From: an uncultured Eubacteriales bacterium
GTDB lineage: Bacteria > Bacillota > Clostridia > Oscillospirales > CAG-272
Assembly: GCA_949747515.1 (NCBI GenBank)
Contig: CATKFO010000059.1
Span: forward strand, 17,813-81,812
Reading direction: 5' to 3'
DNA: 64,000 nt
Both the position numbers and the translations under genes were made by a program. Of the stretch, positions 21,458-33,462 are shown in pieces. How positions within the stretch are numbered: position 1 is the first letter of the stretch; the number at the start of each line of letters is the position of its first letter. The notes under the pieces are model-generated. The model ran no database searches. It was not told the origin of the DNA and was given only the letters and a program-made list of their open reading frames with translations.

Positions 21458-21486
21458 TTTACAACAGGATGAAATTATTGTATAAT
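21458..21486 (+). promoter_or_regulatory. strong sigma-A type promoter now followed only by a ychF 5' remnant
   Basis: TTTACA (21458-21463), a 17-nt spacer, then TATAAT (21481-21486). Confidence 0.55.
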
Positions 21487-21574: not shown

Positions 21575-21601
21575 ATGAAACTCGGAATAATTATATATTG
21601 A
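21575..21601 (+). pseudogene. ychF: displaced or duplicated ychF 5' end (MKLGII then stop)
   Basis: ATGAAACTCGGAATAATT matches the real ychF start ATGAAATTAGGAATAATC (32368-32385) at 15 of 18 nt. Both encode MKLGII. This frame stops after 8 codons. Confidence 0.5.
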
Positions 21602-21716
21602 CGAATTTCCATATTTTCATAAAGAATAACAAATCTGCATAAGCCCCCATGGTACAAGGAAATATTGATTTTTGCAGTTTATATATCTTGATGTTATTTA
21701 ACAAGAATCAATGTGA

Positions 21717-21737
21717 AAATGGCGTAAAAATGGCGTA
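21717..21737 (+). repeat. left copy of the terminal direct repeat (2 x ATGGCGTA)
   Basis: AAATGGCGTAAAAATGGCGTA; the partner at 32292-32313 differs by one extra A. Confidence 0.8.
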
Positions 21738-21764
21738 GACGATTTTTTTCAAAATTAAATATTG

Positions 21765-21807
21765 AAACGGTCATTCGTGTCTGAGAAAGTTGCGAATGAC
21801 CGTTTTT
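21765..21807. terminator. strong hairpin terminator at the left end of the element
   Basis: Perfect 13-bp stem, AAACGGTCATTCG (21765-21777) with CGAATGACCGTTT (21793-21805), then TTTTT on the plus strand. It also lies just downstream of the minus-strand 69-aa gene. Confidence 0.8.
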
Positions 21808-21812
21808 CATAT

Positions 21813-22022
21813 TTAAACTACCGCAGCGTTATCCGAGACTTCAAAAACATTCTCACCAACTACAAACAGGAGCGATCCTGTGGGACTGTCTTCAATCGAG
21901 ATATTACATCCTTGCAGTTCTGGAATCATTTTCAGTAAATCTACAATATCAGTCGGGGACAATATACATTCCTCTGCTAATGGGTTGCTTGAAGCAACAA
22001 TTTTACGTCTTAATCTCTTCAT
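21813..22022 (-). CDS. hypothetical protein (69 aa)
   Basis: AAGGAG RBS at good spacing; no motif recognised. Confidence 0.6.
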   Translation of the reverse strand: MKRLRRKIVASSNPLAEECILSPTDIVDLLKMIPELQGCNISIEDSPTGSLLFVVGENVFEVSDNAAVV

Positions 22023-22352
22023 AGTTAAAACTCCTTTGTGTGGATAATTGATTTGTAAAATTACAAGACATTCCTTTTCATTTGTGTTGCTCAGGTTGAA
22101 CAGCGTATTTTCTGTTTCATGTTTTCATGACGGTTTCATGAGTAACGCAGAATCAGAAAATCAAACTACATTCGGAAAACTTGTTTTCTTTATCAATAAT
22201 ATTAAAGGTTTTGAAGGCAATTTTTCCTATTTAAAGAGAACACCGTATATCACACGATATACGGCGGTTAAAGTTATTCTATATAAATTATGGCTGTTAT
22301 AATTTATCCACGTGAGAACAGGCGCAGAAAATGTTTGCGTTAGGTATAAAGG

Positions 22353-22658
22353 TTAGTCAATACCTAAGAGTATATTCACAGCCTGTTGCAGTTCCGGTTT
22401 TGCGCGGTAAGACTGTAATACCTTTCTTTCCTGCTCGGTGATTTCTCCATCCATTAGGTGAACATCCAAAAGCTCACTTGGCGATACCTGCAAGGCTCTG
22501 CATATCTCAGCGAGAATATCCGCGTCGGGTCTGTTGATACCCTGCTCCCAATTTGAAACCCTGCTGTTGCTGACTCCGATCAGCTCGGCTAATTGCTTTT
22601 GACTTAGATTTCTGTCCTCACGGTATTTGCGGATTCTGTTTCCGATTTCATATTTCAT
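22353..22658 (-). CDS. XRE-family HTH repressor (cI-like, no peptidase domain)
   Basis: LSQKQLAELIGVSNSRVSNWEQG helix-turn-helix. 101 aa. Divergent from a second HTH gene. Confidence 0.85.
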   Translation of the reverse strand: MKYEIGNRIRKYREDRNLSQKQLAELIGVSNSRVSNWEQGINRPDADILAEICRALQVSPSELLDVHLMDGEITEQERKVLQSYRAKPELQQAVNILLGID

Positions 22659-22717
22659 CCTATCACCTCACCTTGCAATAATTATACAGCATATTATCTG
22701 AAAAGTAAATAGAAAAA

Positions 22718-22792
22718 TACAGTATTTCTGTAGAAAAGCGTTGACGAAACAGTATATCTGTGATATAATGTAGAAAAATACAGAAAATCTTG
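22718..22792. promoter_or_regulatory. switch region: operators plus the rightward promoter
   Basis: TACAGTATTTCTGTA (22718-22732) and ACAGTATATCTGT (22749-22761) are palindromic and near-identical. A degenerate third copy is at 22780-22792. TTGACG (22741-22746), 17 nt, TATAAT (22764-22769) has the second operator in its spacer. Confidence 0.7.
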
Positions 22793-22811
22793 ATTGTGGA
22801 GGTGAAAAATC

Positions 22812-23036
22812 ATGAGTGTGTATGAAAAAGTGCGCGCGTATCTTGATGAAAACGGGATAAAACAAGTCGTTATTGCACAGAAAGCAGGGATATCCAATGT
22901 GACTTTCAACGCGATAATGAACGGCAAGCGGACAATGTATGCAGACGATCTGCGGGCTATCTGTCTTGCACTGAATGTCAGTCCCGAATTGTTTATTGAC
23001 GTTAAATGTCCTTGCAAAAGCGGTACTAAAGGATGA
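22812..23036 (+). CDS. XRE-family HTH protein (Cro-like)
   Basis: 74 aa with HTH segment QVVIAQKAGISNVTFNAIMNG; GGAGGTGA RBS. Confidence 0.8.
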   Translation: MSVYEKVRAYLDENGIKQVVIAQKAGISNVTFNAIMNGKRTMYADDLRAICLALNVSPELFIDVKCPCKSGTKG

Positions 23037-23142
23037 TTTCAGAGACGATATCTGATTTTATATTGCTAAACTAAAAATAACAGTTATCAATAAATATCTT
23101 TTTAATACAAAATAAGAATATTTTTTATTTAGGAGGCTGAAA

Positions 23143-24018
23143 ATGTTAACTCACTCAAACAAAGATGAAAATATTGTTATGAAGGATATCCATTGTCCTT
23201 ACTGTGGAAGTGATAACGCCTTATTACTTAATAAGACAACATCAAAAAAGTTATCACTTCAATTACCAGCCTATGGCTTAAAATTTATATTTTCTCTTTT
23301 ATATTTATCCTTTGTACAAATATGGATACATGGTTATAAACTAATTGAAGCAATAAAAGTAATTGATACTGTTACATATGGCTTTTGTCCTCATTGCGGA
23401 AACAGTTATTCAATGGCTCCACCAGATATCATAAAAGAAGAAATAAAAGAACCAAGATTTTATAAAATAAAAGATGGCAAAATAGTAATGGGTTTATGCA
23501 AAGGTATTTCCGAATATACGGGCATTTCCTTATTGTGGGTTCGCATTATGACAGTATTTTATGGATTAACAGTTATTGGTGCCATTTTATACTTTTTAAT
23601 TGGTGCTTGTCTTCCTTTTAAAGAAGAAGCCGAGGACGGTGTTGCATATAAGAAATTCTACAGGATTAATAAAGGCAAAGATATAATGGGTCTGTGTAAA
23701 GGCTTTTCTGAATATACAAGTATTCCTGTTATGTGGGTTAGAATCTTTACCGTATTGTTTAGTAGTACAATTATAGGCATTCCGCTTTATTTTATTATAT
23801 CGGCGTTTGTTCCTGTAAAAGAAAATGTTGAACAAGGTATTACACGGAAAAAGTTATATAAAATCAAAGAAGGTAAAGTCATTCTCGGACTGTGTGCAGG
23901 ATTTGCTAAGTATGCAAACATGCGGTTGTGGCTCGTTCGTTTGTTAACAATTGTTCTTGTCATTCCGTTAGCTTTGTATTGGATTATAGGAGCTATTGTG
24001 CCGACTGAGGAAAAGTAA
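23143..24018 (+). CDS. membrane protein: split zinc ribbon plus three tandem PspC domains
   Basis: CPYCG and CPHCG flank a TM helix. Three repeats follow of the pattern YKIKxGKxxxGLCxGxxxYxxxxxxxVRxxxV plus a TM helix. AGGAGG RBS. Confidence 0.8.
   Translation: MLTHSNKDENIVMKDIHCPYCGSDNALLLNKTTSKKLSLQLPAYGLKFIFSLLYLSFVQIWIHGYKLIEAIKVIDTVTYGFCPHCGNSYSMAPPDIIKEEIKEPRFYKIKDGKIVMGLCKGISEYTGISLLWVRIMTVFYGLTVIGAILYFLIGACLPFKEEAEDGVAYKKFYRINKGKDIMGLCKGFSEYTSIPVMWVRIFTVLFSSTIIGIPLYFIISAFVPVKENVEQGITRKKLYKIKEGKVILGLCAGFAKYANMRLWLVRLLTIVLVIPLALYWIIGAIVPTEEK
23455..24003 (+). repeat. three diverged in-frame tandem repeats, each encoding one PspC-type module
   Basis: Residues 105-158, 170-224 and 236-287 align with each other (nt 23455-23616, 23650-23814, 23848-24003). 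Confidence 0.75.
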
Positions 24019-24019
24019 A

Positions 24020-25549
24020 ATGCAGAATAATAAGCAGTTACCTCCTGGCTGGGGTAAAAATACAGAAAAACCCAAAAGCTGGAATACACAAAACAATAAA
24101 CTTCCAAATGATTTCAGTAATAGCCCAAAAGCCTTGGACACTAAAGAAAATAGTGACGCAGTCTTAACCAAAAATCATCAAGGAGAAATATCAAATTTTG
24201 TTCCTTCATCAGGTAAAGAAACAAAAACTCCCATAATCGAAAGTGATATTAAATCAGAGCAAGTTTCCGCTTGCTCTGATAACTTAAATATTACTAAGAG
24301 TACTAGTACAAATAAAAATGATGAACTAGGTCATTCTAATAAGAGCATTGTAAAACCGTCAGACAAAGCAATAACACTTTCAGAAAAAACGATTGATAAA
24401 AAATCTTCTCGCAAGAAAAAAGTTATCCTGTTCATAGCGATAATAATTATTGTCGTGTTGGTTTTTGTATGTGTTTTAATATCATTAAAAAGAAAAAATG
24501 ATAATCAAAATAATAGTACCGATAAAACAGAAGAATCATTTTCTACTGAAAAAGTATATACTTCGATAGTTTCCGAAGAAATAACCGAAGAAGAAACAAC
24601 AGATAATTCATCTGAAATTACTACAGAAACACCCTCAACAACGGAATTACCTGAAACTACTGAGCCAAATATAAGCTTAACTGAGTACATAGGTTTTTGG
24701 CGTAATTCAAATGATGATGAATTAACCATCAATAGTGCAGATCAAAGTTCAGTTAATTTTAGTTTGTATTTTTACCGACTAACTTCAATTGAAAATGTTG
24801 TCGCTGAACTTAGTGGCAATATAGCATCTTTCTCATATATCAGTAATGGGGAACCTTGGACGGGAGACGGTATAACTAGTGGAATATTAGAATTTAACAA
24901 GTCATCAATTACTGTGACCTTAACCGAATCTGATATTACTTATATACCTAAGGGTTACACCATAGTATTTGATATTATGGATAGTCAAAGCCGTGACGAT
25001 TATCAAACCGACGAACCGACATTTGAAGAAAATACAAGTTCATCAGAAGAACCAATCATTGAAACGGATAACAAAGTATATTGTTCTGTTTGCGGTACCG
25101 ACTGTACGAATAGAAATATGACAGATGGTATATGTGATGATTGTTATACTCATATTCCTAATGTTTACTGCCCTAATTGTGAATATGGTTTTTTCACTAC
25201 CGGAGTAGGTATAAGTGGATTTGAATGTCCAAAATGTAATTATAAATTTAATTATCCTCCAGATTCTCACTCGCAGGAGTTTTTTGAAATAAGCGGATAT
25301 TACAAAGAGCATGAAACTCTATCTAACGGAGAACACATAGATAAAAATTATGATGGAGAGCTTTATTTGTATTCAGATGGTACTGCTTATATATCATCAT
25401 CAGGATTGAGTGTTAATTTAAATTGGGATGTTGAAGTAATGTGGAATGCATCAAATCCTTACGAAAAATTTTCTTTTGCAACAGACAATGAGTACCTGAC
25501 TATATATTTACAAAATGACATCAAATGGATATTTAAAAAAATCTATTGA
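24020..25549 (+). CDS. single-pass membrane protein with a low-complexity N-terminus, Thr/Glu-rich linker and two CxxC-pair zinc knuckles
   Basis: The ATG at 24020 is 1 nt after the upstream stop, with GAGG at 24007-24010. TM encoded at nt 24422-24487. CSVCG..CDDC and CPNC..CPKC encoded at nt 25082-25240. Confidence 0.75.
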   Translation: MQNNKQLPPGWGKNTEKPKSWNTQNNKLPNDFSNSPKALDTKENSDAVLTKNHQGEISNFVPSSGKETKTPIIESDIKSEQVSACSDNLNITKSTSTNKNDELGHSNKSIVKPSDKAITLSEKTIDKKSSRKKKVILFIAIIIIVVLVFVCVLISLKRKNDNQNNSTDKTEESFSTEKVYTSIVSEEITEEETTDNSSEITTETPSTTELPETTEPNISLTEYIGFWRNSNDDELTINSADQSSVNFSLYFYRLTSIENVVAELSGNIASFSYISNGEPWTGDGITSGILEFNKSSITVTLTESDITYIPKGYTIVFDIMDSQSRDDYQTDEPTFEENTSSSEEPIIETDNKVYCSVCGTDCTNRNMTDGICDDCYTHIPNVYCPNCEYGFFTTGVGISGFECPKCNYKFNYPPDSHSQEFFEISGYYKEHETLSNGEHIDKNYDGELYLYSDGTAYISSSGLSVNLNWDVEVMWNASNPYEKFSFATDNEYLTIYLQNDIKWIFKKIY

Positions 25550-25616
25550 TATCTGTCTGTTGTTTTATCCCTATAAAAACAAACATCTCTTTCCGTTTAT
25601 AGATTTACACACCACA

Positions 25617-25652
25617 AAACAGCCGTAGTCTGCTATGATTACGGCTGTTTTC
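25617..25652. terminator. bidirectional terminator
   Basis: Perfect 11-bp stem, AAACAGCCGTA (25617-25627) with TACGGCTGTTT (25640-25650), plus a T run. Confidence 0.85.
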
Positions 25653-25700
25653 TATAAAAGATATTGGCAACACCTTTTCTTTTATATTAAAGTATGGAAT

Positions 25701-25943
25701 TTATTTTGCAAGAACCTCATAAGCAGATTTGTTCTTTGCAATGAGTCTCTTTGAAATCTCTCTTACATCTTCTTCTTTTGCTGTCTGCTCCTGCTCTGCC
25801 GCGTTAAATTCCACAACAAGATAGCGCGGCACATTGTTTTTCAAAATAATGACAGAGCCGTTTTCATCAACCATTCTTGCGACGCGTGAAAAATTTTGAT
25901 TGGCTTCCGTTATGGAAATTAAGTTATCTGTATTTACAGTCAT
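25701..25943 (-). CDS. Phd/YefM-family antitoxin-like protein (no adjacent toxin)
   Basis: The N-terminus ISITEANQNFSRVARMVDENGSVIILKNNVPRYLVV is typical of the Phd/YefM fold; 80 aa. Confidence 0.75.
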   Translation of the reverse strand: MTVNTDNLISITEANQNFSRVARMVDENGSVIILKNNVPRYLVVEFNAAEQEQTAKEEDVREISKRLIAKNKSAYEVLAK

Positions 25944-26141
25944 GATAAGCCCCCCTTTTTTATCTTCAATTATATTATATGCGATATTTAGGATAAATTC
26001 AACCTATTTCAGAAAAATTAAAAAAAATATATCAGTAATGCTGGGGTATTTCCGCAAATATTAATAAATCATTAAGTGGGGTTGTTGTTGAGTCTGATTT
26101 ATCTTATAATATTATTAGATCAAATGCGGCGGGGTGATTTC

Positions 26142-26729
26142 ATGATTTACGGATATGCAAGATGTTCTACCAATGAGAAACTACAGGATATTCAAAGACA
26201 GGTCAGAGAATTAAAACAGCACGGCGCGTCCGACGAGACGATTTATCTTGAATACGAAAGCGGAGCAAAGGAAGATCGGGCAGAGCTTAATAAACTGCTT
26301 AAAGCTATTCAGCCACATGACACGATCATTGCAACGGAAGTAAGCAGAATCACACGCAGTACAAAACAGCTTTGTGAGATTACAGAGCTTGCTAAATTAA
26401 GAAAACTGAAACTGATCCTCGGAAACTTCGTTGTAGATTGCAGTAAGGAGCTTGACCCAATGACTGAGGGAATGTTAAAAATGATGGGTGTGTTCAGTGA
26501 GATTGAGAGAAACATCACAAGTCAGCGTGTGAAAAGCGGTATGCATAATGCAAAGGCAAAAGGCAAGGCAATAGGCAGACCGAATACTACTGCCGACGAT
26601 ATACCGAGCGTATTCTACAAGCATTATCCCAAATACAAAAACGGAGAGCTGAATAAGAAGGATTTATCCCGACTGTGTTCTCTCTCCTATCCTACAGTAT
26701 ACAAATATTTAAGAATGATAGAGGGCTGA
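26142..26729 (+). CDS. small serine recombinase (resolvase/invertase type)
   Basis: MIYGYARCSTNEKLQDIQRQ catalytic N-terminus with the Ser in YARCST, and a C-terminal HTH. GGGGTGA RBS before the ATG at 26142. Confidence 0.88.
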   Translation: MIYGYARCSTNEKLQDIQRQVRELKQHGASDETIYLEYESGAKEDRAELNKLLKAIQPHDTIIATEVSRITRSTKQLCEITELAKLRKLKLILGNFVVDCSKELDPMTEGMLKMMGVFSEIERNITSQRVKSGMHNAKAKGKAIGRPNTTADDIPSVFYKHYPKYKNGELNKKDLSRLCSLSYPTVYKYLRMIEG

Positions 26730-26732
26730 AAA

Positions 26733-27185
26733 ATGAATGTGAAAATCTACTCGCGAGAAGCAATGGAAGAACTGTTGAAAGATAGTGTACTTGAAAGCAC
26801 AGCGGTTATCAGTTTCTATGATCCGCCGACCAAGAGAAATCCAAATGTAACTGAGCCTGTTGACTATACAGGAAAATGTGATCGGGTGTTCCATGTGTGC
26901 ATTAACGATATTGACATTGAGATATTAGGGGACTATGGCTTGACATATGACACATACTTTCCCGAGACTGACGAATTAGCAGAGTTTATTTACAAGGCTA
27001 AGCAGGATGGGTGTGATATTATCTGTCAATGCGAGTATGGGCAAAGCAGGAGCGCGGCGTGTGCCGCGGCGATACTGGAGCATTTCTACGGAACAGGGAT
27101 ATCTGTGTTTGCAGATTACAGGTACTATCCCAATCAGATGGTTTATCATAAGGTTTTTGACGCGTTGGGGAAAGTTAATACATAA
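26733..27185 (+). CDS. CX5R cysteine-phosphatase-fold protein (predicted)
   Basis: CEYGQSRS matches the C-x5-R-(S/T) P-loop of the PTP/DSP fold. The start is 3 nt after the recombinase stop. Confidence 0.55.
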   Translation: MNVKIYSREAMEELLKDSVLESTAVISFYDPPTKRNPNVTEPVDYTGKCDRVFHVCINDIDIEILGDYGLTYDTYFPETDELAEFIYKAKQDGCDIICQCEYGQSRSAACAAAILEHFYGTGISVFADYRYYPNQMVYHKVFDALGKVNT

Positions 27186-27192
27186 CTATGGC

Positions 27193-27230
27193 AAACAGCC
27201 GCTGAATGTTAGTGTTCAGCGGCTGTTTTC
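27193..27230. terminator. bidirectional terminator
   Basis: Perfect 14-bp stem, AAACAGCCGCTGAA (27193-27206) with TTCAGCGGCTGTTT (27215-27228), plus a T run. Confidence 0.9.
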
Positions 27231-27234
27231 TTAT

Positions 27235-27843
27235 CTATAGTATATCTTTATATGTCTTTGCCAAATCTTTCAAAAGAGTATCAATAGCATTAGAAGTTGC
27301 ATCAGATTCACAATTTGAGTTTTCCAAAATTTTAATAGGTTCGTAAGCCTTAAAAAAATCTTTTAGTGTTTTATCACCGAGATAATATAGCTCGTTGTAA
27401 TTAAATGATAATGTGACATGAGGTGAGTTAATTCCATCACCTATATCAATCTTGGGGTTAAATTTATTCAAAATAGCAAGTAGTGCATATGCGATTGGTA
27501 TATTCAACCAAACATCATTGCTATTAAGTTCTGTTCTTAAATCTATTTCATCCCCACATAACCAATCAAGCGAGACACCGAAGTATTTTGCCAAGTACTT
27601 TGCAGTATAAAGACTAGGAGCCTTTTCCCCTGTACCGTACTTGCCTATCATGGATTCATTTACTCCCGTTTCACGTGATATAGTAGCATTATTCTTTTTA
27701 ACTGATTCTTGTGCAGAGATAAATCTTTTAGAAAATTTTTTTCTTATGTTGTCTTCAGCTTCTTGTCTTTTGTTTTTTACTTTAGCATTTTCAGCTTCTT
27801 GTTTTTCTTGTCTTACTTTCAATTTTTCATAATTTGACGCCAT
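27235..27843 (-). CDS. HTH (XRE-like) regulator with N-terminal charged coiled-coil and an unknown C-terminal domain
   Basis: HTH segment NATISRETGVNESMIGKYGTG. AAAGGTGA RBS before the ATG at 27843. Divergent from the primase operon. Confidence 0.75.
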   Translation of the reverse strand: MASNYEKLKVRQEKQEAENAKVKNKRQEAEDNIRKKFSKRFISAQESVKKNNATISRETGVNESMIGKYGTGEKAPSLYTAKYLAKYFGVSLDWLCGDEIDLRTELNSNDVWLNIPIAYALLAILNKFNPKIDIGDGINSPHVTLSFNYNELYYLGDKTLKDFFKAYEPIKILENSNCESDATSNAIDTLLKDLAKTYKDIL

Positions 27844-27884
27844 GAAAATCACCTTTATATATATAATTTTTCTTTAAGTATATC

Positions 27885-27931
27885 ACACTATAGCAAACAT
27901 GTCAATGCTATAGTGTAGAAAACACACTATA
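27885..27931. promoter_or_regulatory. operator repeats of the second switch
   Basis: Perfect 10-bp inverted repeat, ACACTATAGC (27885-27894) and GCTATAGTGT (27907-27916). A third half-site ACACTATA lies at 27924-27931. Confidence 0.65.
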
Positions 27932-28162
27932 AAATATATTCTATATTATGTTTGATTTCCCGCGCGCATATAGCGTACAATATAGATACTTGGTAATAAG
28001 CGGTGTTGGGAGGGCACATAAAAGATGCCGTCAGAGTATTACCGGTACTCCGACGGCGATCATCCAGTGAAAACGAGATTATAACATAACATGCGGTTTC
28101 ACCATATTTATTATAAAACATTTGGACTGTAACCGCAAGAAAAAAGAAAGGAAAATATTATA

Positions 28163-28360
28163 ATGAATGAGTTTTTGAGTAATTTTTTTAAATCCCTTGA
28201 AAATGATCCTGACGTAAAGAAAACAACGTGGGATATACGCGAGGGCAAATATCCACAGGTCACATATGATCTCGGAGACCATATTGAAGAAGTTACAATT
28301 ATGAGGTGCAGTTCAATAGATGATATTGTAAAGGCTCTCATGGATAGTGAGGAGGAATAA
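28163..28360 (+). CDS. hypothetical protein (65 aa)
   Basis: AAAGGAAA RBS. The stop is 1 nt before the primase ATG. Confidence 0.6.
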   Translation: MNEFLSNFFKSLENDPDVKKTTWDIREGKYPQVTYDLGDHIEEVTIMRCSSIDDIVKALMDSEEE

Positions 28361-28361
28361 T

Positions 28362-30734
28362 ATGATATTAGATGAAATACTGAGTTGCTTCAATGACGTT
28401 AAGAAAAAAGACGGTGGAAAGAGATATGAAGCGCGATGTCCTGCACATGACGACAAACACCCAAGCCTATCAATATATATAAATGGCGATTGGGTAAATT
28501 TACATTGTTTTACGGGGTGTTCCGAAGAGAAAATACTCAGTTCAGTGGGATTAAAAAAATCCGATTTATTTATAGGAGCAAAGGGGGTAAGACCAATGGT
28601 AATTAAAGAAAAAATCTATAAATATCAAAAGGCTGACGGCACTCTTGCCTACACAAAAAAACGTTTGGATTATGATGACGGTAAGAAATCATTTTTCTTT
28701 AGTATGCCCGACGGAACAAAAGGATTAAAGGATACAAAACATCTCTTTTATAATCTCCCGGGGATAGACAAAGCTAAAATAATTTATTTTGCAGAAGGTG
28801 AGAAATGCGCCGACGCGATCATTGAGCAAGGCTATACAGCAACTACTCTTGACAGCGGAGCAAATTCAAAATTTTATAAAGAATATATAAAATACTTCAA
28901 AGATAAGGAAGTCATAATCATTCCTGACAATGACGAGCCGGGAATGAAGTATGCCAAAATGATTCAAAAAAATCTACCGTGGGCAGTAATTAAAGAGTTG
29001 CCGGGTCTCAAAGAAAAAGAAGATGTGTATGACTGGTTACAATCGGGACATTCAATAACCGAGATTGAAAAAATTCCTGCGACGGTTTTAGAAAATACTG
29101 ATAATGAAACTTCTGATATCTCCTTTGAAAACAGACAACAGTCTGGCATTTTACTTGATATTATCAGAAATGAAGAAACAGACTTCTTTATGGATGAAAG
29201 TAATAATGCGTTTATAGAAATACTAAATGAAGACCATAAGGAAATTTATGATATAAGTGGCAGTGACTTTAACTTGTGGGCTCAGAATGTATTCTACAAG
29301 AAGAGCAAAAAGGCAATCTGCAAAGACAGTCTTGCGAGAGCAATAGACATTCTGATTGCAGATACAAAATTTGGCAACAAGCAAAAATATATATTGTCAA
29401 ATCGTGTTGCAAAAAGCGGAAATGATTTTTGGTTTGACCTCTCAAATGATAAGTGGTCGGCAATCAGAACAAATTCCGATGGATGGGCATTGATTAAGGA
29501 CGTTCCGAAGCTGTTTTGCAGATATAATCATCAGGCGGCGCAGACGCTTCCGCAGAGCGGCGGGAATATTATGGAAATATTTAAATATGTAAACATGAGC
29601 GGATATCAAACCTTATTCCTTTGTTGGCTTGTCTCATGCTATGTGCCTGATATACCACACCCTATGCCGATTTTTTACGGCGAGAAGGGCGCGGCGAAAA
29701 GCACAGCTTGTGAGCTGTTGAAAAAGCTAATTGATCCGTCATTGATGGATACAGTATCATTAAGTAAAGATGAAAGGACGCTTGTAGTCAATTTACAACA
29801 TCATTATTTTCTACCGTTTGACAATGTATCTGCCATCAATAATGATACCAGCGACATATTGTGCCGAGCGATTACAGGCGGGGCAGTTCAGCAGAGAAAA
29901 TTACATACTAATGGTGAAGATTATATTTTCAAATTTAAAAGGTGTTTAGCTATAAATGGCATTAACAATGTTGCGAATCGTTCAGACCTTCTTGACCGTT
30001 CCATACTGTTTGAGTTGGAGCGTGTGCCCGAAGAAAAGCGTAAGGAAGTACAGGAAATTAAAAATACGTTTGAAGCTGACAGACCTTATCTATTGGGAGC
30101 CATATTTGATATTCTGTCAAAGGCAATGGCAATACATCCAACTGTAAAATTGGACATGCTTCCGCGAATGGCTGATTTCTGTCGTTGGGGGTATGCTATT
30201 GCAGAAGCAATAGGAAATCATGGCGATAGATTTTTACAAGAGTATAAATCTAATCAGGAAATACAGAATACCGAAGCAGTTAACGCGGATATGGTAGCCT
30301 TTCTGATAGTTGAATTTATGAGACACCAAAGAGATTGGTCGGGACGAGTATCTAAGCTTTACAGTGAATTGAAAAATGAAGCTGAAAGGCAAGGCATAAA
30401 TCCCAACAGCAAAAATATACCACAATCTCCTAATAATCTATCAAGACGAATAAAAGCTGTCAAGAGCAATCTTGAAAAGGTGGGTATCACATTTGAATTT
30501 GACACTACAAGATCAGACGGCACATACATCATACTTAAAAATACAATTTTATCTCCATTAGCTTCATGCCATGTGAATCCATACCAAGTTCTGGAGGATT
30601 CAAGCGAAATAGGCAATGGTGACGGCAATGGAGATAGTTCATTCACATCGGAAGCATCACCACTCCAAACTACCTTTAACAGCAATGACAATGGCGATAA
30701 TGAAGATGATGAAGATGAAAATGTAATATTTTAA
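28362..30734 (+). CDS. bifunctional DNA primase / P-loop helicase-like replication protein
   Basis: Zinc motif CPAHDDKHPS..HCFTGC, Toprim-like FAEGEKCADA and IIIPDNDEPG, Walker A GEKGAAKST, and an acidic tail. GAGGAGG RBS before the ATG at 28362. Confidence 0.85.
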   Translation: MILDEILSCFNDVKKKDGGKRYEARCPAHDDKHPSLSIYINGDWVNLHCFTGCSEEKILSSVGLKKSDLFIGAKGVRPMVIKEKIYKYQKADGTLAYTKKRLDYDDGKKSFFFSMPDGTKGLKDTKHLFYNLPGIDKAKIIYFAEGEKCADAIIEQGYTATTLDSGANSKFYKEYIKYFKDKEVIIIPDNDEPGMKYAKMIQKNLPWAVIKELPGLKEKEDVYDWLQSGHSITEIEKIPATVLENTDNETSDISFENRQQSGILLDIIRNEETDFFMDESNNAFIEILNEDHKEIYDISGSDFNLWAQNVFYKKSKKAICKDSLARAIDILIADTKFGNKQKYILSNRVAKSGNDFWFDLSNDKWSAIRTNSDGWALIKDVPKLFCRYNHQAAQTLPQSGGNIMEIFKYVNMSGYQTLFLCWLVSCYVPDIPHPMPIFYGEKGAAKSTACELLKKLIDPSLMDTVSLSKDERTLVVNLQHHYFLPFDNVSAINNDTSDILCRAITGGAVQQRKLHTNGEDYIFKFKRCLAINGINNVANRSDLLDRSILFELERVPEEKRKEVQEIKNTFEADRPYLLGAIFDILSKAMAIHPTVKLDMLPRMADFCRWGYAIAEAIGNHGDRFLQEYKSNQEIQNTEAVNADMVAFLIVEFMRHQRDWSGRVSKLYSELKNEAERQGINPNSKNIPQSPNNLSRRIKAVKSNLEKVGITFEFDTTRSDGTYIILKNTILSPLASCHVNPYQVLEDSSEIGNGDGNGDSSFTSEASPLQTTFNSNDNGDNEDDEDENVIF

Positions 30735-30748
30735 TACGGAGGCTATAT

Positions 30749-30952
30749 ATGAACAAAGAAATAAGTATTCCAATTAATCAAAAGGCTTTACTTTCAATTA
30801 GAGAGGCGTCGGAGTATACCAACATAGGTATTAATAAAATTGACCGTATGCTCAGGACTCCTAATTGTCCGTTTGTACTTTATGTAGGTACAAAGAAGCT
30901 TGTTAAACGTAAGGAATTTGAAAAGTTTCTTGATAATCAGTTGGTTATCTGA
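30749..30952 (+). CDS. xis: excisionase-family DNA-binding protein
   Basis: 67 aa; LLSIREASEYTNIGINKIDRML HTH typical of small excisionases. GGAGG RBS. Lies directly upstream of int. Confidence 0.8.
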   Translation: MNKEISIPINQKALLSIREASEYTNIGINKIDRMLRTPNCPFVLYVGTKKLVKRKEFEKFLDNQLVI

Positions 30953-31003
30953 CGTTTAAAAGATTTTTAGTAATTATAGTAAGAAAATTTATTAAAACCA
31001 TTG

Positions 31004-31051
31004 AGAGAAAAGAGCTTTTATGATATAATAACATGTCAGGCTCTTTTCTCT
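31004..31051 (+). promoter_or_regulatory. 12-bp perfect inverted repeat bracketing an extended -10 element upstream of int
   Basis: AGAGAAAAGAGC (31004-31015) and GCTCTTTTCTCT (31040-31051). TGATATAAT at 31021-31029 lies between the arms. Confidence 0.5.
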
Positions 31052-31073
31052 TCTACTCAGAAAGGAGCTTTAC

Positions 31074-32270
31074 ATGGGCAAGGATTTAAAAGGCAGAGAA
31101 ATTGGAAAGGGACTTTCACAGCGCAAGGACAAGAAGTATTCTGCAAGATATGTAACGAAAAGCGGAAGACGGCTTGAAAAATATTTTAGCACACTTCCCG
31201 AAGCCCGAAATTGGCTTGCAGATTCTCAATATGAAGATTTATACGGTACAACGGGACTTACTTCTACAGTCAGCGTAGACACGTGGTTTAATTACTGGTA
31301 TAATAACTTAATAGTTGATTTATCTCCTAATACAAGACGGAATTATAAGGAGCGATACGAAAGAAATATTCAGCCTGCTATAGGCAGAATGTGTATATCA
31401 GACGTTAAGCCAATGCACTGCAAAATGATACTTAACAACATGTCGAAGGACTATGCAGGCTCTACAATCCGTCAGACATATATAGCTATGGGAACAATGT
31501 TCCGATCTGCCGTTATGAATGATGTAATCCGAAAACATCCTATGGACGGTGTGAAATCCACAAAACCCGTAAGAGCGCCCAGCGACCATAGAGTATTGAC
31601 CGTAGAAGAACAGAAAAAGTTTCTTAAAGTTGCAAAATCATCACATAATTATTATCAGTATGCTTTGGCATTGGAAACAGGACTGAGAACAGGTGAAATA
31701 ATTGGTCTTACTTGGGATGCGGTTGATTTAAAAAATAAAGCTCTTACTGTTAATAAAACTCTTGAGTTCAGACACAATCAGCATACATGGCGGGCTGGTC
31801 CTCCTAAGACGCGGACAAGCTACAGAACAATTCCTCTTACAAACAGAGCTTATAACTTATTTCTGGAGCTTAAAGAAATGCGTAAGTCTCAGAAATTATC
31901 TGAGAATTTATCACAAATGCTGACATACACCGACAGGCGTACAGGGCAAAAGTCAAGTCTTATAATGCGCGATTTGGTATTTATAAATTTCAGAACTGGA
32001 ATGCCTGCAAAAAACAGTTCTTATGACACCCATATTTATAAGCTGTGCGAGACGGCGGGAATACCTCCGTTTTCAATGCACACATTAAGACATACATATG
32101 CAACGAGGGCGATTGAAAGCGGCGTACAGCCAAAAGTTCTTCAAAAACTTTTAGGTCATGCAAGCATTCAAACTACAATGGATACATATGTTCATGTAAC
32201 GGATGATTCCATGAATAACGCTATCAGACAGTTTGAATTAAACAACGCGGCAAACAATGATTTACCCTGA
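31074..32270 (+). CDS. int: tyrosine-type site-specific integrase
   Basis: Catalytic C-terminus HTLRHTYAT ... LGHASIQTTMDTYVHV. The N-terminal basic segment resembles arm-binding domains. AAAGGAG RBS. Confidence 0.93.
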   Translation: MGKDLKGREIGKGLSQRKDKKYSARYVTKSGRRLEKYFSTLPEARNWLADSQYEDLYGTTGLTSTVSVDTWFNYWYNNLIVDLSPNTRRNYKERYERNIQPAIGRMCISDVKPMHCKMILNNMSKDYAGSTIRQTYIAMGTMFRSAVMNDVIRKHPMDGVKSTKPVRAPSDHRVLTVEEQKKFLKVAKSSHNYYQYALALETGLRTGEIIGLTWDAVDLKNKALTVNKTLEFRHNQHTWRAGPPKTRTSYRTIPLTNRAYNLFLELKEMRKSQKLSENLSQMLTYTDRRTGQKSSLIMRDLVFINFRTGMPAKNSSYDTHIYKLCETAGIPPFSMHTLRHTYATRAIESGVQPKVLQKLLGHASIQTTMDTYVHVTDDSMNNAIRQFELNNAANNDLP

Positions 32271-32291
32271 TTTATGCCTGTTTTGTAATCC

Positions 32292-32313
32292 AAATGGCGT
32301 AAAAAATGGCGTA
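32292..32313 (+). repeat. right copy of the terminal direct repeat
   Basis: AAATGGCGTAAAAAATGGCGTA; matches 21717-21737 except for one extra A. Confidence 0.8.
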
Positions 32314-32367
32314 AAATAAATTTGAAACCATTAAAAACCCCTTAAAATAAAGGAGATTTGAAAATAA

Positions 32368-33462
32368 ATGAAATTAGGAATAATCGGCCTGCCCAACGTA
32401 GGAAAAAGCACGTTATTTAACGCTATAACAGGAGCTGGAGCCGCCAGTGCCAATTATCCGTTTTGTACTATAGACCCCAACATAGGCATAGTGCAAGTGC
32501 CGGACAAGCGTCTTGATATACTTCGAGATATGTATTCGCCACAGCTCTATACTCCTGCGACTGTTGAATTTGTCGATATTGCCGGACTTGTTCGCGGGGC
32601 TTCAAAAGGAGAAGGTCTTGGAAACAAATTTCTTTCTCATATTCGAGACGTCGACGCCGTCGTACATGTGCTGAGATGCTTTGAAGACGGAGATATTATT
32701 CACGTAGACGGATCAGTAGACCCTATGAGAGATCTTGAGACTATAAATCTCGAGCTTATATTTTCTGATATCGAAACTCTTGATCGGCGTATAGCAAAAA
32801 CGGAAAAACTTTTAAAGGGAGATAAGTCTTTAGCTTTTCAGCTTGAAACTCTAAAAAAAGTAAAAAACTCGCTTGAAGATGGAATTACCGCAAGAGCTAT
32901 AGGACTTTCCGAGGAGGAGAATGAAATTATATCGGATGTGGAGCTTCTTACGCTAAAGCCGGTTATATATGTCGCGAATGTTTCAGAGAGCGAGGCTTCG
33001 GGAGTCAGTGAAACAAATGAATATTATAAAAAGGTAAAAGATGCGGCTGAATCCGAGGGAGCTGAGGTTATACCGGTATGCTGCGGTATTGAAGCGGAGA
33101 TAGCGGAGCTTGATCCGGAAGAAAAAGAAATGTTCCTTGAGGAGATGGGAATAAAAGAGAGCGGACTTGACAGACTTATAACGGCGAGCTATTCGCTGCT
33201 TGGCTACATAAGCTATCTTACCGCTGGACCAAAGGAGGTCAGGGCTTGGCCGATAGTGAAGGGAACTAAAGCCCCTCAGGCAGCCGGAAAGATACATAGT
33301 GATTTTGAACGAGGATTCATACGCGCTGAAATCGTCTCTTTTGAAGATTTAGTTGATTGCGGTTCTATGAACGCGGCTAAGGAAAAAGGCTTGCTTAGAA
33401 GCGAGGGCAAGGAGTATGTTATTCGCGACGGAGACGTAGTTTTGTTTAGATTTAACGTGTAG
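32368..33462 (+). CDS. ychF: redox-regulated ATPase YchF
   Basis: MKLGIIGLPNVGKSTLFNA P-loop N-terminus and a TGS-like C-terminus. Confidence 0.95.
   Translation: MKLGIIGLPNVGKSTLFNAITGAGAASANYPFCTIDPNIGIVQVPDKRLDILRDMYSPQLYTPATVEFVDIAGLVRGASKGEGLGNKFLSHIRDVDAVVHVLRCFEDGDIIHVDGSVDPMRDLETINLELIFSDIETLDRRIAKTEKLLKGDKSLAFQLETLKKVKNSLEDGITARAIGLSEEENEIISDVELLTLKPVIYVANVSESEASGVSETNEYYKKVKDAAESEGAEVIPVCCGIEAEIAELDPEEKEMFLEEMGIKESGLDRLITASYSLLGYISYLTAGPKEVRAWPIVKGTKAPQAAGKIHSDFERGFIRAEIVSFEDLVDCGSMNAAKEKGLLRSEGKEYVIRDGDVVLFRFNV

Follow-up and report, generated by a model that had tools for sequence, protein, structure and literature searches.

The DNA analysed here (the window) is a 64,000-nt stretch of contig CATKFO010000059.1 (assembly GCA_949747515.1, positions 17,813 to 81,812) from an uncultured Eubacteriales bacterium of the CAG-272 lineage. 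Between a response-regulator gene and ychF it contains a 10.8-kb element (21592-32367), the genes of which were located from an open reading frame (ORF) listing and profile searches of Pfam, PHROGs and NCBIfam (Table 1; coordinates are window positions unless a locus or contig is named, and loci, genomes and contigs are given as L, G and C numbers). A preliminary description, made from the sequence alone, had named an integrase, an excisionase, a primase-helicase, two repressor switches, a serine recombinase, an orphan antitoxin and membrane-protein cargo. All of these were found, the Phd/YefM-like antitoxin by a match below the Pfam cut-off.

Table 1. Features of the element and its immediate flanks (RBS, ribosome-binding site; HTH, helix-turn-helix; SF3, superfamily 3)
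Feature	Position	Strand	Evidence and remarks
Native ychF promoter, TTTACA-17-TATAAT	21458-21486	+	11/12 consensus matches; predicted function; host flank upstream of attL
attL core ATGAAACTCGGAATAAT	21575-21591	+	original first 17 nt of ychF; matches attR core at 15/17
Left arm	21592-21806	+	conserved ATTGACGA box beside core; tandem ATGGCGTA 21716-21737; hairpin 21766-21806
o69, small conserved protein downstream of htA	21813-22022	-	homologues at like position in L052, L055, L046, L039; no family match
htA, CI-like XRE-family HTH regulator, 101 aa	22353-22658	-	PF01381 1.6e-19; 62-71% identical across members
htB, Cro-like HTH regulator, 74 aa, first cargo-operon gene	22812-23036	+	PF13443 9e-8; 70-84% identical elsewhere
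Variable cargo	23143-25549	+	the two membrane-protein genes below
Triple-PspC membrane protein	23143-24018	+	PF04024 three times, 8.9e-36
517-aa single-pass membrane protein with zinc knuckles	23996-25549	+	cargo
Possible orphan Phd/YefM-like antitoxin	25701-25943	-	PF02604 1.4e-5, 25.2 bits, below 29.8-bit cut-off
Small serine recombinase, resolvase/invertase type	26142-26729	+	PF00239 5e-32; phrog_125 'DNA invertase' 1e-45
CX5R dual-specificity-phosphatase-like protein, 150 aa	26733-27185	+	PF00782 6e-6, below cut-off; 87% identical in L050
Terminator hairpin between left and right modules	27193-27228	+	16-pair stem; shared with L046, L048, L050
Putative master repressor, 205 aa (HTH and C-terminal domain without assignment)	27235-27852	-	PF01381 6e-6; phrog_8 2e-13
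o65, small ORF heading replication-excision operon	28163-28360	+	78% identical in L050
Pri-Rep, 795 aa, DnaG-type primase (CHC2 zinc finger and Toprim) fused to SF3/D5-type helicase	28347-30734	+	phrog_6088 4e-34
Tn916-type excisionase Xis	30749-30952	+	PF09035 (Tn916-Xis), 7.6e-28
Tyrosine integrase Int	31074-32270	+	PF00589 3.8e-28, PF14659; promoter-like site 31001-31029
Right arm	32271-32367	+	tandem ATGGCGTAAAA putative arm-type sites 32292-32316; RBS AAGGAG 32350-32355 for ychF
attR core ATGAAATTAGGAATAAT	32368-32384	+	element-supplied first 17 nt of intact ychF

The block is confirmed to be an insertion, a bounded integrative element. The extent first proposed for it holds, with att cores on either side of 21592-32367. 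The site is empty in five congeneric genomes, where the response-regulator gene abuts ychF at a distance of ~300 bp. Of the 20 species genomes of the genus, only this one contains the integrase, and the element has no counterpart in any of the 19 others searched. A 17-nt direct repeat, equal to the ychF start, flanks the element. The two core copies mismatch at positions 7 and 9, and for this reason strand exchange most likely takes place within GGAATAAT. The windowed G+C analysis gives 35.8% for the element against 44.4% for the genome, placing it in the lowest 0.4% of the genome's 10.8-kb windows; the four hand-counted samples given earlier (21/60, 18/60, 26/60 and 32/60) were all exact on recount.

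Further copies were found via the encoding loci of eight Pri-Rep homologues in metagenome contigs. Ten have the same layout (L046, L047, L048, L050, L051, L052, L055, L163, L164 and L165), with the common order small serine recombinase, variable cargo, Cro-like HTH, CI-like HTH, small ORF, ~200-aa repressor, small ORF(s), primase-helicase, Xis, Int and ychF. All nine copies with an assembled right end (9/9) are located at ychF; in L050 the left end is missing, a partial int reaches the contig end and no ychF is assembled. Wherever junctions could be read, the att structure is identical and an element-borne AAGGAG RBS precedes the rebuilt ychF start. The junctions show that recombination by this tyrosine integrase family, of Tn916/Tn1549 lineage, takes place at a 17-nt core identical to the ychF start. 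A literature search returned no paper linking ychF to such elements and no description of a ychF-targeting family of this kind.

Two of these copies, L046 and L047, are sister elements in metagenome assemblies from different samples. Within the element they differ at 5 of 9,581 nt (99.95% identical), while 81 of the first 479 nt of the host ychF differ (17%) and the left-flank gene is only 72% identical. Near-identity starts at the left 17-nt core, and the first right-hand mismatch lies 4 nt past the right core. This comparison therefore fixes the ends and points to recent transfer between different species. Across family members, Int is 81-85% identical where YchF is only 60-71% identical, which is another sign of horizontal spread. 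Taken at the level of sequence, these identities show that the element family moves between species, and with its bounded ends and its excision and replication modules the name integrative element, as first used, is appropriate. The tandem arm repeats (21716-21737 and 32292-32316; ATGGCGTA/ATGGCGTAAAA) were also considered as the true att cores and rejected: identity between L046 and L047 stops at the ychF-start cores, and in all members examined the repeats are found within the element, at a conserved spacing from its ends.

On the evidence of the junctions, insertion severs ychF from its native promoter, RBS and start, and the element provides an RBS and the first codons. The gene itself is intact (32368-33462, 364 aa, both Pfam domains present), and the orphaned native promoter and the RBS now precede an 8-codon ychF stub left of the element. 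No terminator-like site was found on the + strand between int and ychF, and therefore ychF is probably now transcribed from the element. The element thus replaces the start, the RBS and probably the promoter of a conserved gene, and in decayed copies the right arm may stay behind as a working ychF 5' region. In another genome of the genus (G010:C19; L011 8556-8614), ~60 nt before ychF closely match the right arm, with one ATGGCGTAAAA site, ~12 divergent bases and 37 identical nt including the same RBS. Genes for Int, Xis and primase are all missing from the neighbourhood, and there is a tRNA-Leu gene on the upstream side. The stretch looks like a fossil right arm retained as ychF expression signals. 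A degenerate right-arm-like stretch also occurs left of attL in L052 (560-665; degraded ATGGCG repeat, GAAACCCTTGAAAAATCAGGAGG), downstream of a xis-like fragment (L052 198-325), and suggests decay of an earlier island here, followed by insertion of a new one next to it.

The best solved relative of Int is Tn1549 Int (6EMY, 3.5e-21). The features of the left arm are found at equal distances in L046, L048, L163 and L164, and the right arm is conserved in these four and in L165. In every member examined, the tandem ATGGCGTA repeats are set back from the ends of the element, by ~125-150 nt on the left and by ~50-75 nt on the right. Tn916 Int has an N-terminal arm-binding domain, and the placement of the repeats inside both ends therefore fits arm-type sites for an integrase of that kind; the tandem repeats in both arms are candidate arm-type integrase sites. 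The small serine recombinase has Gin invertase as its best solved relative, followed by gamma-delta and Tn3 resolvase. It is 75-77% identical in other family members, and it matches Ccr models only at 1e-5 or weaker.

The integrase module is more widespread than the primase-bearing elements. In a class sample of 400 genomes, 11 besides the element's own carry integrase homologues (E <=1e-80). In ten of the 11 these are 44-67% identical and ychF follows in all ten, with Xis upstream wherever assembled; the eleventh homologue (~38-40% identity) has no ychF after it within the fetched stretch. The islands of this sample that were fetched in full (L156 in G612, L160 in G571 and L162 in G448) lack the primase; their genes include those for type I restriction-modification systems, a McrB-like AAA_5 ATPase or a DNA methylase. 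From their gene content they look like defence islands at the ychF site. Since primase-free islands share the same module, Int, Xis and the ychF site form a general island platform, of which the primase-bearing elements are one subfamily. In L051/L053, a second element is inserted after codon 2 of xis (L051 ~9970; compare L052 10797). It starts with a 503-aa large serine recombinase and carries the phage-like nucleotide-metabolism genes dUTPase, NrdD, ThyX and dNMP kinase. The interrupted sister island matches L052 at 98.7% identity over a stretch of 6.5 kb. Swapping of the integrase module was considered for these loci and rejected, as both copies retain attL at ychF and the nested element sits in xis.

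That the element could be a decayed prophage or transposon remnant, no longer mobile, is very improbable. It has no structural or transfer genes, as would be expected of a remnant, and the G612 integrase copy has an in-frame TGA stop. Against this, all ORFs of the window copy are intact, and the same compact architecture recurs in the ten further copies, none with structural genes and two of them 99.95% identical in different species. The element family is widespread in gut Clostridia.

For Pri-Rep, Pfam detects only the N-terminal zinc finger and Toprim. An AlphaFold2 model (alignment of 38 homologues, mean pLDDT 82) was compared with the PDB using Foldseek, the top matches being African swine fever virus PrimPol, the primase-helicase of the Staphylococcus aureus pathogenicity island SaPI5 (7OLA; TM-score 0.60 on target), the C-terminal region of NrS-1 and poxvirus D5/E5. 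The Toprim acidic residues and the P-loop GEKGAAKST (Walker A) are invariant in the 38 homologues. From this model, we take Pri-Rep to be a self-contained replication initiator, as in SaPIs. There are >400 homologues at E <=1e-20, and the best 120 listed, with the window's own protein excluded, are 48-86% identical. Few homologues are named among the matches listed, the labels being 'hypothetical', Clostridia, Ruminococcaceae or Eubacterium metagenome bins. The nearest phage proteins are primases or helicases, 25-35% identical, and with the primase as single query, locus searches in genomic, metagenomic and viral collections gave nothing close.

The helicase half of Pri-Rep also has relatives, 28-30% identical, on small plasmids of 12-35 kb. 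The element might accordingly be an integrative plasmid-like episome that alternates between chromosomal and plasmid states, is kept monomeric by its resolvase and spreads by generalised transduction, transformation or vesicles, with no dedicated helper. Conservation of the resolvase-type recombinase in the family fits such an episome, as does the finding of no hijacking gene of any kind in the element. The assembly, in turn, contains no free-circle contig, nor an attP or attB contig, and near-identical copies in hosts with ychF 17% diverged suggest efficient interspecies transfer, more typical of helper-exploiting elements. On balance, a plasmid-like episome is improbable.

Regulation appears to be organised around two switches. 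The 205-aa gene faces the operon o65-Pri-Rep-xis-int across a 310-nt control region (27853-28162), where a promoter-like site for this gene lies on the minus strand (27905-27877) and perfect inverted repeats are present (27885-27916). Its HTH protein, which also has a sub-threshold RstR-family match (2.8e-10, 40.4 bits; cut-off 80 bits), is predicted to repress the facing operon. Small ORFs occupy the o65 position in L048, L163 and L165. The second switch is the CI/Cro-like pair htA/htB, with a promoter-like site ahead of htB (22741-22769, consensus match 11/12), and it is predicted to control a hotspot of variable cargo.

As the preliminary description had held, packaging and transfer genes are absent: for none of the element's ORFs did the three libraries return a family of capsid, terminase, portal, relaxase, coupling or type IV secretion system proteins. 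The same is true of packaging and conjugation genes in every family member examined, and transfer therefore depends on something else. Given near-identical copies in hosts with ychF 17% apart, some unseen vehicle must be moving them in the gut. The element is best read as a 10.8-kb integrative island that is probably self-replicating, unable to transfer itself and in need of an outside vehicle (probability about 0.6). The earlier proposal of a helper-dependent integrative island, either a satellite or a mobilisable element, is supported in this respect by the ends, the excision and replication modules and the absence of transfer genes. In the mechanism proposed, relief of the 205-aa repressor would lead to excision by Int and Xis, the excised circle would be replicated by the primase/SF3-helicase protein, and multimers would be resolved by the small serine recombinase.

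The element's own genome was searched for a resident helper, as had been suggested. It contains one terminase large subunit, in a siphovirus-type prophage on contig C67 (~190-34000; L060, L061). Alongside TerS and TerL, this prophage encodes a portal, a major head protein and a 1,241-aa tape measure, and its large serine integrase has 527 aa. It extends up to the start of the contig and is the sole candidate helper found in the genome. A cos or pac site shared with it was sought and none was found, shared sequence not being above chance. Packaging into helper-phage particles is judged the most likely route of transfer, at somewhat less than even odds. In favour of a satellite are the SaPI5-like fold of Pri-Rep, the satellite-like regulatory layout, and the presence in the genome of one prophage and of no conjugation marker from the three families searched.

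A number of observations weigh against an island of this kind or against its packaging by a phage. No terS, cpm, ppi, capsid-size or packaging-interference gene was matched by family in the three libraries, and no iteron-type replication origin was found in the element. Only 4 14-mers are shared between the element and the C67 prophage, compared with 12-21 for control contigs, and IMG/VR yielded distant matches to the N-terminal primase domain only and no family member. Int and xis lie at the operon end and point outward, an arrangement shared with Tn916-type elements but not with classical SaPIs. With an assembly that is 94% complete, a conjugative helper could lie on missing sequence.

Another possibility is an integrative mobilisable element without a relaxase, where a conjugative element in the same cell would act, through its own relaxase and mating pore, on nothing more than an oriT-like site. 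Islands mobilised through oriT only do exist. Xis and Int are of the Tn916/Tn1549 type, typical of Firmicutes conjugative transposons and their mobilisable relatives, and their outward-pointing position at the element end fits a mobilisable element. Set against this, no relaxase, coupling protein or mobilisation accessory protein was matched among the ORFs. Searches of the genome with three families found neither a PF03432 relaxase nor a TraG-D_C coupling protein, and no VirB4-like ATPase of the AAA_10 family scored above cut-off (FtsK was not among the families searched). No oriT was recognised, by tools unable to recognise one. Mobilisation by a conjugative element is considered unlikely, and packaging by a helper phage is preferred.

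The helper-dependent island resembles several known systems in part. Like phage-inducible chromosomal islands (PICIs) and SaPIs, it is ~10 kb long, integrates site-specifically, has a putative repressor gene facing an excision-replication operon and carries variable accessory cargo, and the modelled helicase part of its Pri-Rep folds like that of SaPI5. Unlike them it lacks terS, cpm and ppi, has int and xis downstream of the replication gene and pointing outward, and combines a DnaG-type primase domain with an integrase of Tn916/Tn1549 lineage. It shares with Tn916/Tn1549 a Tn916-type Xis, an Int nearest to Tn1549 Int among solved structures and candidate arm-type repeats in both arms. However, there is no conjugation module or relaxase, and integration is strictly site-specific at a 17-nt identity core in ychF, whereas Tn916 inserts with low specificity in AT-rich targets and leaves coupling sequences. 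The staphylococcal cassette chromosome (SCC) elements are likewise integrative islands with a replicative helicase-type initiator, site-specific recombinases and no transfer genes, located at the end of a conserved housekeeping gene; they use Ccr large serine recombinases at the rlmH 3' end, in contrast to a tyrosine integrase and Xis at the ychF 5' end. Satellite phage P4 is also integrative, replicates by one fused primase-helicase and encodes few structural proteins or none; nothing comparable to its genes for capsid size and helper control (sid, psu, delta), or to its P2-matched cos site, was found in the element. In summary of these comparisons, the element is most PICI-like in replication and regulation, Tn916-like in recombination and SCC- or integrative-plasmid-like in having no transfer function. 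As both the packaging feature of PICIs and the relaxase of mobilisable elements are missing, it is assigned to neither class.

It is tempting to speculate that these replicative, helper-dependent islands form a class not described so far: as phage satellites they would do without any packaging gene and rely on a short packaging signal only, commandeer ychF expression and maintain a CI/Cro-controlled hotspot as a reservoir of unrecognised defence or envelope genes. This proposal is doubtful as a whole. Exact ends and an att site are now given for a widespread island family of hard-to-study gut Clostridia, and the integrase and Xis, together with the 17-nt ychF core, could be developed into a tool for site-specific integration in these hosts.

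The cargo position is occupied by different genes in every family member and may hold new defence or envelope functions. The only PADLOC match was borderline (CorA-like, E 5.4e-4, 18 bits) and fell to the 517-aa protein; the PspC protein had none. Residues 342-418 of the 517-aa protein, its zinc-knuckle region, share 40% identity with a section of a 333-aa cargo protein of L164 (2909-3910), and zinc-ribbon membrane proteins recur as cargo in L046 and L164. The Phd/YefM-like ORF gave no tblastn match in six members tested (L046, L048, L050 and L163-L165) and is taken to be particular to this copy. An Rfam search found no RNA family.

The mosaic character noted in the preliminary description is evident in the left half of the element (o69 to the phosphatase-like gene), which behaves as a separate module. 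Relative to the window, the whole module (21807-27192), from o69 through htA, htB, the cargo and the serine recombinase gene to the phosphatase-like gene, has the opposite orientation in one clade of the family (L046, L048, L163, L164 and L165), and it is flanked by two conserved hairpins. In one relative (G180, L039) the module has another position, on the downstream side of the primase, and a large serine recombinase is encoded upstream. An active invertible switch is not supported: no inverted repeats were found at the module ends, and in the primase tree the inverted copies fall together, for which one or two old inversion events suffice.

A second gene for a CX5R phosphatase-like protein is present in the same genome on contig C64 (5318-6393; L062), with 90.7% DNA identity. 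It adjoins a truncated large serine recombinase (C-terminal domains only), followed by genes for an HNH protein and a methyltransferase, and the locus is probably a remnant of another mobile element.

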